DNA of 64,000 bases from Acidimicrobiia bacterium (GTDB taxonomy: Bacteria > Actinomycetota > Acidimicrobiia > Spongiisociales > ZC4RG35): assembly GCA_040880725.1 (NCBI GenBank), contig JBBDHV010000005.1:56340-120339 (forward strand), read 5' to 3'. Under the pieces are notes generated by a model. That model did no database searches. It saw nothing but the letters and a program-made list of their open reading frames with translations, and had not been told where the DNA came from. The translations under genes and the position numbers were made by a program. Of this stretch, positions 9,916-29,310 are shown piece by piece (position 1 is the stretch's first letter; every line of letters starts with the position of its first letter).

Positions 9916-11073
9916 ATGGATCTCCGCAACGAAACGATGCTGATCCTGGGCGACCTCATCGGATTTCCGACGGTCACATCCGAGTCGAATCTGGATCTCA
10001 TCGAGTACGCGGCGGCTCGACTCGAGGCAGTCGGTGCCCAGGTGGTGCTGACCCACCATCCCGAGGAACCGAAAGCGAACCTCCTCGCCACGATCGGACC
10101 GGCCGTCGACGGTGGCGTCGTGCTCTCCGGTCACACCGATGTGGTTCCCGCCGATGAGGAGGCCTGGACGGGGGCACCGTTTCTCGCCATGCGGAGGGAA
10201 CAGCGCATCTATGGCCGGGGGGCGGTGGACATGAAGGGATTCATCGCGTGCGTGCTTGCGATGGCTCCGACATTCGCGGCGGCGGAGCTGCAACGCCCTG
10301 TCCAGGTCGCCCTCACGTTCGACGAGGAGGTCGGCTGCCGCAGCGCTCCGATCCTCGTCTCCGAGCTACTACGCACCGGCCCCGTGCCTGCCGCGGCGAT
10401 CGTGGGAGAGCCGACCGAGATGGCCATCATCGACGCCCACAAGGGTTGCTACGAGTACACGACGACCATCACCGGGCTCGCTGGGCACGGGTCGGCTCCC
10501 GATCGCGCGGTGAACGCGGTGCAGGCGGGTGCACGCTACGTGTCACGATTGTTGGAGCTGGGCGCACTGCTCGAGGACTTCGCGACCCCAGACAGTCCGT
10601 ACGAGCCTCCCCATACGACGATCAATGTCGGCCGCATGGCCGGCGGCACGGCGCGCAACGTGGTGGCCGGCGAGTGCGTCATCGAGTGGGAGATGCGTCC
10701 GGTGAGCCGGGCCGATGCCGACTTCGTGCTCGCCGGTTTGCAGGCCACCGAACAGGAGATGAAGAGTGCGATGGCCCACGTCCACCCCGATGCCTCCATC
10801 GTGACATACACGGAGGGCGCGGTCGGCGGTCTCGAGAAGGACGCCGGTTCGCCGGCCGTGGCGCTGGGACGGGCGCTGCTCGGCAACGTGCCCACTTCGG
10901 TCGTCTCCTTCGGCACCGAAGCCGGGATCTATCAGGCGGCAGGCATCCCGGCGATCGTCTGCGGTCCCGGTTCGATCGAGTTGGCCCACCGCCCCGACGA
11001 GTACATCGAGATCTCCGAACTCGAACGCTGCCTCACCATGCTCCAAACCCTCACCACCCACCTCTCGACGTAG
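9916..11073 (+). CDS. M20-family deacetylase (ArgE/DapE-like), presumed N-acetyl-diaminobutyrate deacetylase role
   Basis: 385 aa. Has 'LSGHTDVVPA', 'GRGAVDMKG' and 'FDEEVGC', typical of acetylornithine deacetylase. The role in ectoine catabolism is inferred from its position after doeA. Confidence 0.8.
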   Translation: MDLRNETMLILGDLIGFPTVTSESNLDLIEYAAARLEAVGAQVVLTHHPEEPKANLLATIGPAVDGGVVLSGHTDVVPADEEAWTGAPFLAMRREQRIYGRGAVDMKGFIACVLAMAPTFAAAELQRPVQVALTFDEEVGCRSAPILVSELLRTGPVPAAAIVGEPTEMAIIDAHKGCYEYTTTITGLAGHGSAPDRAVNAVQAGARYVSRLLELGALLEDFATPDSPYEPPHTTINVGRMAGGTARNVVAGECVIEWEMRPVSRADADFVLAGLQATEQEMKSAMAHVHPDASIVTYTEGAVGGLEKDAGSPAVALGRALLGNVPTSVVSFGTEAGIYQAAGIPAIVCGPGSIELAHRPDEYIEISELERCLTMLQTLTTHLST

Positions 11074-11077
11074 TCCC

Positions 11078-11093
11078 AAACCCTGGGTTCCAG
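11078..11093 (+). repeat. copy A of the ACCCTGGGTTC repeat family, bracketed by a 9-nt direct repeat
   Basis: AAACCCTGGGTTCCAG lies directly after the stop of the M20 gene. GACGTAGTC occurs at 11067-11075 and again at 11103-11111. Confidence 0.6.
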
Positions 11094-11160
11094 ACCACAC
11101 TGGACGTAGTCACGGGCCCGCAGTTCGGGTTCGGGGGCTGAGAGTTCTGCTTCTTTGCGC

Positions 11161-11186
11161 TAGATCGGACGCCGGCGTCCGATCTA
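11161..11186. repeat. 26-nt perfect palindrome between convergent genes (probable bidirectional terminator)
   Basis: TAGATCGGACGCC|GGCGTCCGATCTA. Its right end contains the MFS stop codon (11184-11186). Confidence 0.6.
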
Positions 11187-12350
11187 ACCCTGGGTTCGAT
11201 TGGACTCCAGGGTGGGGAGGCGGAGTAGGAGGGCGGCGCCGGCGAGCGCGGATCCCGCGGCGACGAAGGACGTGACACGGATTCCACCGACTCCGAACAT
11301 CCACGGACCGGCGAGATCGCCGGCGATCCGTCCCACCCCGGTCGCAACTGCGAACCACGCCAGATAGCCGGTCCGGTTTCCCGGGTGGATCTCGGTCGCA
11401 ACGGACATGCCCGAGACGATCGTGTACTCGATGAGTGCGATGCCCACCGCCAGGACGCCGACCCCCACCACCAGGGAGTCGGCGACCATCGCGAGGACCA
11501 CGAACACGACGGCGGCCAGGGCCAGGGCGAGGGCGAGCGCGTTCCTCTTGTTGACCTTGTCGGTGATCGCCACGACACCGCCCTCGCCGATGAGTTCGGC
11601 GACGCCGATGACGGTGCCGACCCCGCCCAGTGCCAGTAGTGCCAGCCCGAAGCTGTTCTCCAGCCAGGTGCCGAGGTTCACCAGCAGTATTTCGAGGGCA
11701 AACCCGACGATGCCGCCGACGACCAGAAACCACAGCGCCGGTCCGCGCACCTTTGGCTTCTCGCCGATGTCGATGACCGCCTCGGTCTCGACCCGATCCA
11801 TCCTCGCCACCGCCACCATGCCGACGGCCGACAGGATGCCGAGGATGAGAAACGGGGTGTTCCATGCGCCGCGCTCGATGAGCCAGCCCGCCATCGGGGC
11901 GCCGATGAGGAGGCCACCTGCCCAGGCGACTTCGAGCAGACCGATGTGACGGCTGCGACGGTGCCACGGGACACGCTCGGCGACGTGTGCCTGCGCTCCG
12001 ACATCGAAGAGAGGCTTGGCGAAACCGATGAGCGCGAACCCGATGAGCGCCCCGGCGAAGACTCCGAGCAGAGCGGTGACCAGTGATCCGATCGCGAACA
12101 CTGCCAGCCCGACGAGGAGGAGGGCGCGGCTGGTGGCTCTCGTCCCTGCCAGCCCGATCGCCACGGGCGAGGCGAACCCGGCCACCCAGCGCATCGACAC
12201 CAGGGCGCCCGCCTGCCCGATGCTGATGCCCAGTCCGCGGGCGATCGCAGGGAGAAACGGGTACACCAGACGAATCCCCGTGTTGAGGACGAGCTTCAGG
12301 GCCACCAGTCGGACCGTCCCGATCTGGCGACTTTCGGAACGGAAGGTCAT
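11184..12350 (-). CDS. MFS transporter
   Basis: Start at ATG 12350 (MTFRSESRQIGTV...). About 388 aa with about 12 TM segments. The upstream 190 codons of the track ORF are Arg/Pro-rich. ATGA overlap with the upstream gene. Confidence 0.8.
   Translation of the reverse strand: MTFRSESRQIGTVRLVALKLVLNTGIRLVYPFLPAIARGLGISIGQAGALVSMRWVAGFASPVAIGLAGTRATSRALLLVGLAVFAIGSLVTALLGVFAGALIGFALIGFAKPLFDVGAQAHVAERVPWHRRSRHIGLLEVAWAGGLLIGAPMAGWLIERGAWNTPFLILGILSAVGMVAVARMDRVETEAVIDIGEKPKVRGPALWFLVVGGIVGFALEILLVNLGTWLENSFGLALLALGGVGTVIGVAELIGEGGVVAITDKVNKRNALALALALAAVVFVVLAMVADSLVVGVGVLAVGIALIEYTIVSGMSVATEIHPGNRTGYLAWFAVATGVGRIAGDLAGPWMFGVGGIRVTSFVAAGSALAGAALLLRLPTLESNRTQG
11187..11213 (+). repeat. copy B of the ACCCTGGGTTC repeat family (inside the last codons of the MFS gene)
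   Basis: ACCCTGG-GTTCGATTGGACT-CCAGGGT forms a 7-bp perfect stem. It shares the core and the 'ACTCCAGG' tail with copy C. Confidence 0.6.
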
Positions 12351-13387
12351 CCGGTGAGCCGTTCCGCAAGCGCGACGACCGCAAGGTGTGGTTCCCGCAG
12401 GCTTCCGACGTACAGGAGCCGTCCGTGCGAGATCGCCGAGGTGGTGAACCCCACGCGTCCCGTGGAATCCTGGAGGTTGGCAATCACGGTGCCGGTCTCG
12501 TCGAAGGCGGCGACGAAACCATGGCGGGAGACTTTTGGATGCAACCCCGCGGGAAGCCGATGGATGAGCGCGCGAGAGTGCGGCAGATTCGCGGTGGCGT
12601 CGAGCTTCCGGTCGCGGGGGCGGGGGAAGCCGCACCAGAACAGCCCGTCGCTCAGGTTGAGGTTGTCGGGCAAGCCGGGAAGGTTCTCGCAGAACATGTC
12701 GTGGCTTCCGGCGTCCGGTCCTTTGAGCCACACCCGGTGGATGCGGTAACTGCCGAGTTCGGCAACGAGCACGAAGCGCTCTGCCGTTGCAAGCGCCACC
12801 CCGTTGGCGAAGACCAACCCGTCGAGTACGACGTCGAGGTCGCCGTTCGTGTCGCGCCGGTACAACGCTCCGGTCGCCGAGCGTTCCAGGAGGTCGGTGT
12901 TGTACCGGGACAGCGGCCACCGGTGCGATGACACCGAGAAGAAGATCGTGCCGTCCCCAGCGACTGCGGCGTTGTTGGTGAGCAAGAACGGGACCCCTCG
13001 ATACCCGTGGGCGAGCACCTCGACGGAGCCGTCGGGGGAAAGCCGCTGCAGGCCTATGTCGGCATTGCAGATGATGAACGACTCGCCGTCGGCGTCGAGT
13101 TCGACTCCGAGGGGGCGACCCCCGACATCGCCGATCGTTTCAGGAGGCCCGCCGTCGGGCGAGAAGCGCACGATCCTTCCGTCACGGAGTCCGCTCACCG
13201 GGCGTCCGCGACCGTCGATCGCCACATCTTCGGGGCCGGTGCCCGTCGTGTCCCACAGGGCGGCGGCGCGAAGGTGGTCGTTGACGGCGAACGGACCGAC
13301 GAGGCCGTGATCGCGGGGCGGCTGCCACTTCCTGGGTTGGAACACCACCGGGCGATTGTGGTCGAACGAAGCGGCAGACGCTAACAC
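12347..13387 (-). CDS. strictosidine synthase-like / SMP-30-gluconolactonase-LRE family beta-propeller protein
   Basis: Has 'GPEDVAIDGRGR', 'GRPLGVELDADG', 'NNAAVAGDGTIFFS', 'FANGVALA' and 'GLPDNL'. The start is ambiguous: GTG 13387 or ATG 13426. The latter would overlap herA. Confidence 0.75.
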   Translation of the reverse strand: MLASAASFDHNRPVVFQPRKWQPPRDHGLVGPFAVNDHLRAAALWDTTGTGPEDVAIDGRGRPVSGLRDGRIVRFSPDGGPPETIGDVGGRPLGVELDADGESFIICNADIGLQRLSPDGSVEVLAHGYRGVPFLLTNNAAVAGDGTIFFSVSSHRWPLSRYNTDLLERSATGALYRRDTNGDLDVVLDGLVFANGVALATAERFVLVAELGSYRIHRVWLKGPDAGSHDMFCENLPGLPDNLNLSDGLFWCGFPRPRDRKLDATANLPHSRALIHRLPAGLHPKVSRHGFVAAFDETGTVIANLQDSTGRVGFTTSAISHGRLLYVGSLREPHLAVVALAERLTG

Positions 13388-21535: not shown

Positions 21536-22437
21536 GGTTCTCGGTCGAGACATGGGCGCCGGAGTACGGGTCGCCCATGGAGGCCGAGATGGAAGAGTCG
21601 ACGGTCACGGTCGACGTCGCGGTCGAAGTCCCGAAGGACGCGTGGCGGCCTCTCGAAGTCGACGCTGCGCCGTCGCCCGACGTCGTGTTCGTGGATGGAG
21701 TGCGCCGGATCGACGCCAACGTGTGGATCGACGACGGGAGCGATCCGCCCACGTATGGAGTGTGCGCCACCTACGCCGCGGGGGCGGTGCGGTGCAATGG
21801 GTCCGCAGACGTCGCGGCAGTAATGGTGGAACGCAGCCTGTTCACGGCGGCGCGGTCGGCGGAATCGATCGACACCCGGCACGGCAGCTACGGCGTGGTG
21901 TCAACCGTGGGCTCGTCCCCCGAGGATTTGTGGATCGGCATCCAGAAGCGCATGGGAATCCTCGAAGGACGCGTGTCGGCCGGTCTCGAGGGAACCGGGA
22001 TGATCGTCGTCGACGGGCCACTGTCCCATCATCAACAGGTCGAGGGTGCGGTGGGCTACGTGAAGAGTCAGCATGTCCATCACCTCCCACCCGAGGTGCG
22101 GGGAATCCTCCGGGAGATTCCGGTGGGTCGGCGGACCCCGGTGTTCATGGTCGGGGGAGCCAGGCAGGTCTTCTCGTGGTATCTGCGTTTGTCCGCGCTG
22201 GGCGGCAGCATGTCGGGGGTGGTGCGCTGTGAGGTCGAGGCGGCAGGAACCGCCGCAGAGGCAGTGCACATCGCCGATCGGGTGACCGCCACGCTGCCCC
22301 GATTCGCGTCCCACGAGCACAAGGACCCGCGCGCTCCCCAAAACCTCTACCCCATCGGCGGACTCGAACGCGAACTGCGCCGCAGGCTCGGTGACCCGAT
22401 GCTGATGTACCGCGCCCTCCGCCGCGCCGCCGCCTGA
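21532..22437 (+). CDS. NurA-like nuclease candidate (RNase-H-fold), third gene of the mre11-rad50 operon
   Basis: GTGA overlap with sbcC. Has 'VVFVDGVRRID', 'MIVVDGPL', 'VGYVKSQH', 'FSWYLRL' and C-terminal 'LYPIGGLERELRR' in the order of NurA motifs (DGS.., DG.L, vsK.., fY.r.., YP..L). Assigned from motif pattern only. Confidence 0.45.
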   Translation: MRFSVETWAPEYGSPMEAEMEESTVTVDVAVEVPKDAWRPLEVDAAPSPDVVFVDGVRRIDANVWIDDGSDPPTYGVCATYAAGAVRCNGSADVAAVMVERSLFTAARSAESIDTRHGSYGVVSTVGSSPEDLWIGIQKRMGILEGRVSAGLEGTGMIVVDGPLSHHQQVEGAVGYVKSQHVHHLPPEVRGILREIPVGRRTPVFMVGGARQVFSWYLRLSALGGSMSGVVRCEVEAAGTAAEAVHIADRVTATLPRFASHEHKDPRAPQNLYPIGGLERELRRRLGDPMLMYRALRRAAA

Positions 22438-22449
22438 CCCCACCGCCCC

Positions 22450-22497
22450 GCGTACCCTGGGTTCGCAGGGACACTCCAGGTCCCTGGGAGCCCACGG
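22450..22497 (+). repeat. copy C of the ACCCTGGGTTC repeat family (left inverted repeat flanking alkB)
   Basis: GCGTACCCTGGGTTCGCAGGGACACTCCAGGTCCCTGGGAGCCCACGG lies 13 nt after the nurA-like stop. 36 of 48 positions, and 20 of the first 21, match the reverse complement of 23283-23330. Confidence 0.7.
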
Positions 22498-22575
22498 TTG
22501 GCCGCCCTTTCGACGCATGGGTACGCGACGACGCTCGGGAATGGAGATCACCCGTGCAGGCGCCGATCGTTCGGT

Positions 22576-23193
22576 TCAGTCGTATGCGTGACGAAACATC
22601 ACGGCGATGCGCGGTCCCGCGTGCGCGACCTTGGGAACGCTGTGGTCGTACGTGCGCTGACACGAACCACCCATCACGATGAGGTCTCCCCGGCCGGCTG
22701 CCCAGCCGATGCTGTTGCCCCCTCCCTTGGGTCGCACCCGAAACGGTCTCGGCTCTCCGAGGGACACGATTGCCACGGTGGCGCTTGGCCGCTCGCGTGC
22801 GATCCGGTCGCCATGCCAGGCGACACTGTCCTGTCCATCCCTGTACAGGTTGCAGGTGATCCGATCGAGCATCGCTCCGTAGCGGTGGCTGAGCGCCGCA
22901 GACATGTCCCGCAGCACGGTGAGGCCGGCGGGGACACCTTCGGAGCCGAACGATGCGACCTGGCGGGGACGGGGAACTTCTTCTCCTCGTATCTTCTCGG
23001 TGCCGTCGTGCCAGTCGACGCCGTCGAGCATGGCGAGGAAGAGGCCGTCGGGCCGCGCTACCCAACCCGGTTGGCGATCGATCCACGCACCATGGTCGAG
23101 TTCGGTGCGTGTCATGTGCTCGAAACCGGTGTCGAACGGGTCGGCCGATGCGGCGAGATCGAGGGTTCCCTGGAAGGTCAAATCCGCTGCCAT
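22576..23193 (-). CDS. alkB: alpha-ketoglutarate/Fe(II)-dependent dioxygenase AlkB (alkylation repair)
   Basis: Has 'NLYRDGQDSVAWHGDRIA' (HxD), 'GDLIVMGG', 'YDHSVPK' and 'RIAVMFR'. ATG 23193 (MAADLTF) is preferred. The upstream ATG 23286 lies inside repeat copy D. Confidence 0.85.
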   Translation of the reverse strand: MAADLTFQGTLDLAASADPFDTGFEHMTRTELDHGAWIDRQPGWVARPDGLFLAMLDGVDWHDGTEKIRGEEVPRPRQVASFGSEGVPAGLTVLRDMSAALSHRYGAMLDRITCNLYRDGQDSVAWHGDRIARERPSATVAIVSLGEPRPFRVRPKGGGNSIGWAAGRGDLIVMGGSCQRTYDHSVPKVAHAGPRIAVMFRHAYD

Positions 23194-23282
23194 GATCGCA
23201 GAGTAGTCGAACACACGTTCTGCATGGCAGAGCGCGCTCGCCCGGGCGACTCTCGCCCACTCCCACCGGTGTCCCGGGTGAA

Positions 23283-23330
23283 CCATGGGCTCTCAGGGCC
23301 ATCCCAGAGCCCTGGGAACCCAGGGTACGC
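23283..23330 (-). repeat. copy D of the ACCCTGGGTTC repeat family (right inverted repeat flanking alkB)
   Basis: The reverse complement reads GCGTACCCTGGGTTCCCAGGGCTCTGGGATGGCCCTGAGAGCCCATGG. It lies 20 nt downstream of the EamA stop (23350) in sense orientation. Confidence 0.7.
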
Positions 23331-23349
23331 CAGGGTGTCGGTCGGTCGG

Positions 23350-24243
23350 TCAGGACTCGCGGCGGGAGGCGAGGAAGGCGCCGGCGATGACGAGCAGCGC
23401 GCCGACGATCGCCAGGGCGCTGACGCGGTCGCTGCGGAAGCCGACTCCGAGACCGAGGGAGACGACCGGGATCAGGTAGGTGATGAACGAGGCGCGCGGA
23501 CCCCCCACGCGGCCGACGAGGGTCGCCATGAGGACGAAGGCCAGGCCGGTGCCTGCCACCCCCAGCACGGCGTTTGCCGCGGCTGCCGCCACCGTGAAAG
23601 TGGAGTCGGCGAGGCCCACGACGCCGAACGGCGTGGTCCAGACCGTGGCGAGGAGGAGCATCCGCGCCATCACCGGGACGGATCCGTACTTCTGCTGGAC
23701 CGGTCCGGCGATGTTGGTGGCCACTCCGTACGAGAGAGTTGCGAACAGGACCATCGTGACGCCGATGAATGCACTCGGCTCACCGGCTCCCGACGACAGG
23801 CTCACAGCGGCGATGCCGAGGAAGCCCACGGCGAGCCCGATCCGCTGCGGTCCCCGGCTGGGGCGACCGAAGAACAGGCCGCCGATGATCGCCGTGAAGA
23901 TCGGCATCGCCCCGTTCAGCATCCCTGTGACCGACGAGTTGATGTACTGCTGGGCGAGGGGAAACAACGTGAACGGAAGCGCCACCCAGACAATCGAGAG
24001 CACGAGCACCTTTCTGCTGTCGGCCGGCTCGAACCGCACCCGGGCGGACGGCAATGCGATGAGTGCGAGCGCGCCGAGTCCGACCCGCAGCCAGGTGATC
24101 AGTCCCGGGTGGAACGAGTCGAGGGCGATGTCGATGAACAGGAACGATGCGCCCCAGATGAACGAGACCGCCAGGAACAGTCCCCAGTCCTTGGGCTCGA
24201 ATGCTTCGCGGTCGTTGTGGACCGCGGTCGCCGGAAGGCTCAT
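23350..24243 (-). CDS. EamA/DMT-family transporter
   Basis: ATG 24243 (MSLPATAVHND..). 297 aa with 10 TM-like segments. Has 'FIWGASFLFI' and a duplicated EamA architecture. ATGA overlap with the upstream PNPOx gene. Confidence 0.85.
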   Translation of the reverse strand: MSLPATAVHNDREAFEPKDWGLFLAVSFIWGASFLFIDIALDSFHPGLITWLRVGLGALALIALPSARVRFEPADSRKVLVLSIVWVALPFTLFPLAQQYINSSVTGMLNGAMPIFTAIIGGLFFGRPSRGPQRIGLAVGFLGIAAVSLSSGAGEPSAFIGVTMVLFATLSYGVATNIAGPVQQKYGSVPVMARMLLLATVWTTPFGVVGLADSTFTVAAAAANAVLGVAGTGLAFVLMATLVGRVGGPRASFITYLIPVVSLGLGVGFRSDRVSALAIVGALLVIAGAFLASRRES

Positions 24244-28995: not shown

Positions 28996-29225
28996 AGCTC
29001 TCCCTCCAAGGGAGGACCGCACGGAGTTCAACGGGCGTGCCAGGGGTGGTGCCCAACTCCAGTGCGATATCAAGCGGGGATGTGGGGGAACACCTCCCGC
29101 CCGCCCGCTGCACACTAGAGCCACGGGTTTGCTCCGTGCAACCATCGCTTTGTGGGTCGAAATAACCCCGAGAACGGTCGGCTGGGACCGACCGCGCGAC
29201 CGGTAGGCTGCGACTGCCGACGAAC

Positions 29226-29310
29226 CTGGCGGGAGAGACCCTCTCCGGAGGGCGCCGAAGGGGCAATCCATCCCCGGAAACTCTCAGGCATCAGGACCGC
29301 ACAGGGAAGG
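29226..29310 (+). promoter_or_regulatory. glycine riboswitch aptamer (single copy) in the gcvP leader
   Basis: CTGGCGGGAGAGACC...GGGCGCCGAAGGGGCAATCC...GGAAACTCTCAGGCATCAGGACCGCACAGGG contains the conserved GGAGAG, CGCCGAAGGGGCAA, CUCUCAGGC and GGAC blocks. It lies about 60 nt upstream of the gcvP ATG. Confidence 0.8.

Follow-up and report, generated by a model that had tools for sequence, protein, structure and literature searches.

What is the short repeated element that stands just behind several genes of this actinobacterial locus, and what accounts for its presence there? The stretch examined here (the window; 64,000 nt) corresponds to contig C5:56340-120339 of our Acidimicrobiia draft genome G000 (2.48 Mb in 60 contigs, 65.6% G+C, 86% complete). 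The original prediction, made from the letters of the window, held that the 11-mer ACCCTGGGTTC is the core of a hairpin-forming repeat family at operon ends, either of the repetitive extragenic palindromic (REP)/terminator type or similar to miniature inverted-repeat transposable elements (MITEs). The observation was confirmed and its interpretation partly supported: the copies belong to a dispersed REP-like family of four subtypes, each of which frames, in inverted orientation, one gene for a predicted nuclease of the AbiEi/DUF559 type.

All four exact copies of ACCCTGGGTTC were recovered at precisely the predicted positions and strands (Table 1). Allowing up to one mismatch, the window contained five matches versus a mean of 1.22 in 100 dinucleotide shuffles, and 0/100 shuffles reached five. 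Genome-wide, the core occurs 90 times, compared with a mean count of 3.1 for the 803,728 distinct 11-mers, and only eight of these are commoner, namely seven simple words of the CGN/GNC codon type and poly-G/C. Its ninth place indicates that the core is not a common oligomer of the genome's composition. Runs of G or C of at least 11 were counted 92 times among the genome's 11-mers. Profile searches of the genome with nhmmer yielded 110 non-overlapping matches, 103 of them full length, at 82 sites comprising 56 single units, 24 doublets and 2 triplets. Among 22 inverted doublets or dimers, 18 combine units of the same subtype (as read off the site lists, not computed), and tail-to-tail doublets without a gene have spacers of 12 to 56 nt, plus one of 218 nt. 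The exact family pattern was almost confined to metagenome-assembled genomes (MAGs) of Acidimicrobiia among 185,579 species genomes, and a scan of the copies against Rfam 15, at gathering thresholds and at E ≤ 1, returned only an unrelated glycine riboswitch and noise. With 90 cores and about 103 units, the family is a REP-like set of dispersed hairpins, as predicted, and not a transcription-factor site, an assignment that we regard as nearly certain.

A box-anchored alignment revealed a single architecture of about 60 nt in all units: a subtype-specific half-stem X of 7 to 10 nt; a box P1 (AACCCWGGGTT), palindromic around one base; an inner hairpin X'-loop-X with a stem of 8 to 10 bp and a free 4-nt loop; and a box P2 (GCCCRCRGTTC) 36 nt after P1, so that the boxes have a period of 36 bp. 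Four subtypes were distinguished, namely A1 (CAGGGNC/GNCCCTG, 33 units), A2 (GGACCACCG/CGGTGGTCC, 19 units), A3 (GACCACAC/GTGTAGTC, 32 units) and B (GGACG-YRYR-CGTCC, 19 units), the last with a diverged P2 (GCGCAAAGAAG). Within subtypes, conservation reaches at least 75 to 90% in half-stem, boxes and stems, and the loops vary freely; identity within subtypes averages 0.70 to 0.80, with maxima of 0.92 to 0.97 between loci.

The gene associated with these repeats was found on contigs other than that of the window. Inverted pairs of units about 930 bp apart, with P1 facing outward, each enclose a paralogue of a protein of about 300 amino acids. The four close paralogues (51 to 62% identical), on contigs C15, C54, C43 and C21, all carry a unit on both sides (4 of 4) and are framed by subtypes A3, A2, A1 and B, respectively. 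The upstream unit ends 31 to 34 nt before the start codon; the downstream unit starts 7 nt behind the stop codon or else overlaps it, the TGA then being part of T-GAAC in P2. A fifth, more distant paralogue (C7:38263-39341; 28% identity) lies between the arms of a separate 45-bp inverted repeat, TTCTTAGCGAAnCAGCGCGTCAnnnnTGACGCGTTTCGCGTGGCA, which agree at 44 of 45 positions; this low-copy repeat is unrelated to the four subtypes and has four further copies, on C16, C23, C32 and C58. All five paralogues in the genome (5/5) are therefore framed by inverted copies of their own subtype. No other gene is bounded by unit ends, and each subtype has a single gene copy per genome despite 20 to 30 potential targets.

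As judged from domain profiles, the framed protein consists of an AbiEi_4-type winged helix and a Vsr-like nuclease domain of the DUF559/MTES_1575 type with its catalytic residues kept. The N-terminal winged helix (AbiEi_4, PF13338) was matched in three of four paralogues (best E = 1.5e-11; the one scored match shown lies above the cut-off). For the C-terminal domain, REase_MTES_1575 was matched in four of four paralogues, though below the cut-off, and DUF559 in three of four at about the cut-off; the D...ExD..H motif is invariant (D234, E245, D247, H252). The protein thus resembles AbiEi antitoxins of type IV toxin-antitoxin systems in its predicted AbiEi_4 winged helix and Vsr/DUF559 endonucleases in its predicted DUF559/REase_MTES_1575 fold with this motif. 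It differs from the AbiE system in that the repeat frame leaves no room for an AbiEii toxin open reading frame (ORF), because the repeats abut the gene at 7 to 34 nt on both sides (neighboring genes were not scanned for AbiEii), and from Vsr in that no methylase partner or mismatch-repair context of the nuclease genes was seen. By eye, the stretch from the left repeat to the start codon was seen to contain a recurrent TGTCAC(A) motif and, a few bases before the start codon, a TANNNT-like hexamer (for example at L007 1440-1500 and in most of loci L008-L036), which suggests that the nuclease genes may have their own promoter and a leaderless mRNA.

The pairing of gene and repeat extends beyond this genome. 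In a genus sample of eight genomes (our own and seven others, the relatives all being fragmented MAGs), 16 further nuclease genes were found at three conserved chromosomal positions. Both flanks of each gene always share a hairpin class, three to five classes occur at each position among the species, and in a maximum-likelihood tree of the proteins every multi-member hairpin class forms a well-supported clade (97/95 to 100/100). In G004 (3 of 3), G007 (2 of 2) and G002 (3 of 3), the subtypes dispersed in the genome are those of its resident genes. In a taxonomic-family sample of 61 genomes, the gene was present in 46, and at 23 of 30 loci, taken from 30 genomes, the flanking inverted repeat exceeded each of 26 displaced-flank controls in strength; across the family, the box sequences change with lineage (AACCCCGGGTT, AACCTCAGGT, AACCTTAGGTT). 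Whether genomes without the gene lack the AACCCWGGGTT box was fixed in writing as a test before it was run: 14 of 15 gene-less genomes have at most four boxes, the exception being G075 with 26, and 21 of the 22 genomes with at least 20 boxes carry the gene (Fisher p = 0.006, kinship ignored). The only homologue in G075, L077 (G075:C64) 1300-2600, is framed by a different hairpin repeat, GGTGAGATGGCAG-ATTT-CTGCCATCTCACC. We are highly confident that the partnership between gene and repeat is real.

At a probability of about 0.6, we favor the reading that the units are REP-like modular palindromic repeats, akin to bacterial interspersed mosaic elements (BIMEs), and that they are probably cognate DNA sites of the AbiEi/DUF559 proteins they frame. 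X plus a box would constitute a recognition module that is present twice per unit. The nuclease would cut at or near the repeats, and subsequent copy-repair would keep copies alike and occasionally seed new ones. Copies would persist mainly in the few bases after stop codons, where insertions may be tolerated or targeted; as RNA, the hairpin may in addition contribute to shaping mRNA 3' ends, a role proposed for the mycobacterial TRIT motif described below. The scheme would be similar to that of REPINs (paired, inverted REPs) and REP-associated tyrosine transposases (RAYTs), with an unrelated enzyme. What the data show is the repeat family with its architecture and placement, its gain and loss among species and the one-to-one match of gene and subtype. 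Binding, cutting and spreading by the protein are suggested by analogy with REPIN/RAYT, and the proposal that the nuclease is the agent of repeat spread or maintenance is accordingly put forward as tentative.

The likeness to REP/BIME and REPIN-RAYT systems (REPtrons of proteobacteria) is considerable. Both there and here, short extragenic palindromes occur in tens to hundreds of copies and in several sequence groups per genome, inverted doublets are common (doublets occupy 24 of 82 sites here), and each group frames, in inverted orientation, its own single-copy enzyme gene at a fixed chromosomal position. Three REP groups, each adjoining its own RAYT, have been described (Bertels and Rainey 2011, PMC3116915). 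The present system differs in its enzyme, a predicted winged helix plus Vsr-like PD-(D/E)XK nuclease instead of an HUH Y1 transposase; in its unit of two boxes and an inner hairpin with a 36-bp period; in its lack of identical copies or a master sequence; and in its strong preference for the first bases behind stop codons. We found no earlier account in the literature of this arrangement of gene and repeat, a REP-like system whose partner is not a RAYT. Likewise, our literature search found nothing linking AbiEi with DUF559, AbiEi or DUF559 with dispersed repeats, or REPIN/RAYT with Actinobacteria. The sole trace is a table row in which DUF559 genes are overrepresented in predicted inversion targets (PMC9881135), an effect to be expected of inverted repeats on both flanks.

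Several results weigh against the nuclease-site reading. Among the units, no identical copies were found at different loci and no master sequence is apparent; together with the identity of 70 to 80% within subtypes, this means that there is no sign of recent bursts as in REPIN populations. No transposition intermediate, cleavage site or target-site duplication is known for the family. Profile searches of NCBIfam and the PDB with the nuclease proteins gave no match and hence no solved relative by sequence, and a structure model built from four sequences was too poor for a fold search or for support (predicted local distance difference test, 59). Orphan subtypes for which no gene was detected occur in G003 (two, abundant), G005 (two, low-copy) and G075 (the box family), all of them fragmented MAGs. 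The co-occurrence statistic ignores phylogeny, and the contrasts within the genus are two for and one against. Finally, in the maximum-likelihood tree the proteins of position I and those of position II do not each form a single lineage, which suggested cassette replacement at conserved loci, but the approximately unbiased (AU) test does not reject a single origin by vertical descent at each locus (p = 0.15 and 0.05), and cassette replacement was dropped.

Contigs C32 and C56 of our genome begin inside repeat units, and nuclease genes lie at contig ends in relatives (G004:C40, G001:C181, G005:C15). These positions indicate that assemblies break at the repeats and that the genes paired with them can be missed in MAG bins.

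An alternative is that the units act only as RNA, i.e., as hairpins at mRNA 3' ends (noncanonical terminators, stabilizers or RNase III substrates), the link to the nuclease being secondary, for example because cassettes land in hairpins or are insulated by them. Folding and placement speak in part for this. The 52-nt cores fold to a mean of -25.2 kcal/mol with a mean z of -3.2, and 65% of units have z < -2, in line with the predicted hairpins; copy A of the window folds only weakly on its own (z = -0.4). The predicted fold is a single long imperfect rod, in which the inner hairpin is enclosed by the pairing of P1 with P2. Of the cells of the ungapped alignment, 70% are paired in register versus 27 to 49% when the partner is slid by one to three columns, and the inner-stem columns contain two to four pair types (e.g., A-T 49/G-C 22 and C-G 46/G-C 32), so that pairing has been kept by compensatory change between subtypes. 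Two positions of the outer P1:P2 stem, however, remain non-Watson-Crick (C.C, 63 of 101 units; T.G, 80 of 101), and these conserved non-pairing positions point to a constraint on sequence rather than on pairing.

Placement was assessed against 1,940 genes (84% coverage) from a simple codon-usage caller. The 82 sites comprise 76 intergenic sites, 2 at contig edges, 2 in-frame coding insertions and 2 within spurious, over-extended ORFs. In 24 of 103 units, P1 starts 5 to 25 nt behind a stop codon of the same orientation versus 0.7% expected, a 32-fold excess. The predicted operon-end placement holds for the majority. It is not universal: the intergenic sites are 25 convergent, 33 tandem and 18 apparently divergent (gene starts being uncertain there), the last lying upstream of genes; intergenic regions genome-wide are 18% convergent, 63% tandem and 19% divergent. 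Stop codons are often part of the unit itself: three genes, among them that of the M20 peptidase in the window, end at the TAG within the A3 half-stem GTAGTC, and another three, among them the MFS-type gene, at the TAG that follows P1 in subtype B.

Two insertions are translated in frame, both in the same frame (EPRVPD...). One, at C20:34043-34127, lies in the gene for a 2-oxoacid dehydrogenase E2 acyltransferase, in the linker between the subunit-binding and catalytic domains, and has three boxes with a 36-nt (12-codon) period; the other, at C30:38143-38230, is a head-to-head dimer in the C-terminal tail of a CcmH-like gene. Rickettsia palindromic elements can also sit in frame in protein-coding genes; the present family differs from them in that only 2 of 82 sites are coding and in that sequence and host are unrelated. 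Of 102 units, 1 has a run of at least four T residues within 12 nt after P2, a stretch whose mean T content is below the genome average. Thus, the units have the G+C-rich hairpin of intrinsic terminators without the U tract, and two copies lie inside genes that are necessarily transcribed through. They are not canonical intrinsic terminators, and the terminator part of the original prediction does not hold.

The closest precedent for an RNA element is TRIT (for "Tuberculosis Rho-independent terminator"), a motif with 147 palindromic copies narrowly placed at stop codons in Mycobacterium, which was initially classed as a terminator and subsequently proposed as a substrate of RNase III, its function still being debated (Gardner et al. 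2011, PMC3152330; PMC13714241). Like our units, it is a highly conserved palindromic hairpin of an actinobacterium, about 50 nt long and in about 150 copies, that is found at stops, often overlaps the coding end and lacks a classical U tract; this likeness is judged on position and structure only, as Rfam 15 contains no TRIT model. TRIT differs in being reported as restricted to Mycobacterium and in having no described partner gene (PMC3152330; PMC13714241). The rarity of U tracts, the two translated copies, the conserved non-pairing positions and the sites upstream of genes all count against an RNA-only element, which moreover leaves unexplained why both flanks of the nuclease genes carry a subtype that tracks the protein clade. 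We consider it unlikely.

Comparison of orthologous loci in the genus revealed that sites may be empty, single or double and that the units filling them are of the subtype proper to each genome, which counts in favor of the nuclease-site reading. Our genome has, at the nurA-like|EamA junction, copies C and D of the window enclosing an AlkB-like gene. The whole C-AlkB-D segment is missing in G001, G004 and G005, where the junction is empty and two stop codons lie 2 to 3 nt apart. The same junction in G007 has one unit of its own GGACG subtype, and in G003 and G006 two inverted units of their own subtypes with no gene between them. The M20|MFS junction lacks copy A in G004 and G005, both of which have copy B, and lacks copy B in G001, where the MFS C terminus differs. 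The half-stem X belongs to the inserted DNA, and no target-site duplication was visible at three comparisons of filled with empty sites (two loci, up to seven genomes).

In a second alternative, the repeat is the target and not the product: the nuclease genes would be selfish, homing-type inserts in the spacer of doublets, and the repeats would have spread otherwise, by slippage or recombination. Gene-less tail-to-tail doublets do resemble empty gene frames, the unrelated AlkB-like gene also sits inside a doublet, and the split of the locus I and II proteins into more than one lineage is in its favor. On the other hand, each subtype has only the one gene copy among so many potential targets, and the genes keep three conserved chromosomal positions across the genus; vertical descent is not rejected by the AU test, and no other mechanism of repeat spread is in evidence. 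This explanation, too, appears improbable to us. The doublet spacer at 22501-23279 of the window, which holds the AlkB-like gene and an SOS box and whose counterpart in two congeners is a gene-less doublet, may be a landing place for genes. In G006 and G007, AlkB is found at another location without repeat flanks; the idea of AlkB as a mobile cassette was rejected in view of these orthologues.

Third, the units might be immobile arrays of binding sites, to which the winged-helix nucleases bind for a host function such as AbiEi-type autoregulation, chromosome organization or the marking of DNA for repair, and which arose by slow duplication and selection. The age of the copies (70 to 80% identity), with conserved boxes and free loops, would agree with this, and AbiEi-type winged helices of the AbiE system bind inverted repeats for autoregulation. 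Yet the filling of the same site by each genome's own subtype requires an active, trans-acting process, about 100 sites just after stops match no known regulatory logic, and the nuclease motif is invariant, so that we consider such arrays very unlikely.

A classical MITE of a DDE transposon, a RAYT-driven REP or a compositional artefact, for which small size, inverted symmetry and high copy number might speak, can be practically dismissed: no RAYT (PF01797) was matched in the eight genus genomes including our own (control genomes do match), the three filled-versus-empty comparisons lack a target-site duplication, the sole gene with shared ends is AbiEi/DUF559, and the core ranks ninth among all 11-mers. 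With neither a target-site duplication nor a DDE-type partner seen, the MITE-like reading of the original prediction is unsupported. MITE-type repeats (Correia/NEMIS, ERIC and MIRU) are likewise small, dispersed, noncoding elements at gene boundaries that vary in copy number among relatives and may be co-transcribed; they differ in having terminal inverted repeats and target-site duplications or in being tandem minisatellites, whereas the present unit is a nested palindrome without duplication.

The four copies of the window represent three of the subtypes (Table 1). C and D share one subtype along about 58 nt and are inverted relative to each other, so the extended similarity reported for this pair stands. 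The stretch ACTCCAGG shared by B and C proved incidental, as B belongs to another subtype in the opposite orientation; A is of a second subtype. The predicted placement behind the stop codons of the M20, nurA-like and EamA genes was borne out, and copy B indeed supplies the last codons of the MFS-type gene, whose frame passes through the half-stem and P1 to the stop codon. Treatment of copy B as a tRNA-like element or riboswitch was dropped: in G007, the GGACG hairpin occurs in the ordinary P1-hairpin-P2 layout, and copy B is therefore a fourth subtype on the minus strand.

Table 1. Positions of the repeat units and adjacent genes in the window
Feature	Subtype	Position	Strand	Details
Copy A	A3	11066-11126	+	half-stem CGACGTAGTC; P1 ACCCTGGGTTC and core match (+), 11080-11090; hairpin GACCACAC/CGTAGTC; P2 GGGCCCGCAGTTC, 11114-11126
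Copy B	B	11150-11207	-	half-stem GAGTCCAATCG; P1 AACCCAGGGTT, 11186-11196; core match (+), 11187-11197; diverged P2 AGCGCAAAGAAG, 11150-11161
Inner hairpin of copy B	B	11162-11185	-	GATCGGACG-CCGG-CGTCCGATC
Copy C	A1	22443-22500	+	half-stem CCGCCCCGCGT; P1 and core match (+), 22454-22464; hairpin CAGGGAC/GTCCCTG; P2 GAGCCCACGGTTG, 22488-22500
Copy D	A1	23280-23337	-	inverted relative to C, boxes reverse-complemented; P2, 23280-23292; hairpin, 23293-23315; P1 and core match (-), 23316-23326; half-stem, 23327-23337
M20 peptidase gene		9916-11073	+	stop TAG 11071-11073 within half-stem of copy A, 6 nt before its core
MFS-type gene		11184-12483	-	last codons and stop TAG 11184-11186 from copy B; start uncertain
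nurA-like gene, stop TGA		22435-22437		5 nt before start of copy C, 16 nt before its core
AlkB-like 2OG-Fe(II) oxygenase gene		22576-23194	-	Pfam PF13532, E = 9.8e-15; between copies C and D, context and not repeat
EamA gene, stop		23350-23352		23 nt from core of copy D

The start of the MFS-type gene is uncertain because its in-frame ORF reaches 12920; position 12483 is the end of a neighboring ORF, with no start in the MFS frame. The longest AlkB-like ORF reaches 23286, inside copy D; its likely start is at about 23194, behind an SOS-type box. This mycobacterial-type SOS (LexA) box, TCGAACACACGTTC, is located at 23203-23223, just upstream of the likely start, and a box of this kind also precedes the AlkB orthologue in G006 and G007. 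GAAC-N5-GTTC was rejected as a LexA box, as its spacing is N5 and not N4 and the true SOS box lies elsewhere in the window. A Dcm/Vsr CCWGG context of P1 was rejected as well, since the box center varies across the family (CCTCAGG, CCTTAGG, CCCGGG). In addition, the window contains a glycine riboswitch aptamer (Rfam RF00504, 67.8 bits) at 29220-29309.

For genome annotation, it is relevant that units supply stop codons and C-terminal residues, as in the M20 and MFS-type genes, and sit in frame in protein linkers and tails, as in the E2 and CcmH-like genes. Moreover, they cause MAG assemblies to break precisely where the genes that would account for the repeats lie, and they flag hotspots of insertion for genes such as AlkB. 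To our knowledge, the origin and spread of short palindromic repeats are understood only where a RAYT is present, and we know of no origin or partner reported since 2011 for actinobacterial stop-codon hairpins such as TRIT. The one-to-one pairing of subtype and nuclease offers a concrete, testable candidate enzyme together with a specificity code of half-stem plus box, for which the four or five matched pairs of this genome form a natural specificity panel. In a bolder and somewhat doubtful generalization, winged-helix/Vsr-like (AbiEi_4-DUF559) nucleases, each paralogue specific to its subtype, might recognize, maintain and spread the REP/TRIT-like hairpins of Actinomycetota, and would then represent, for the partnership of repeats and a domesticated enzyme, a second, RAYT-independent solution.

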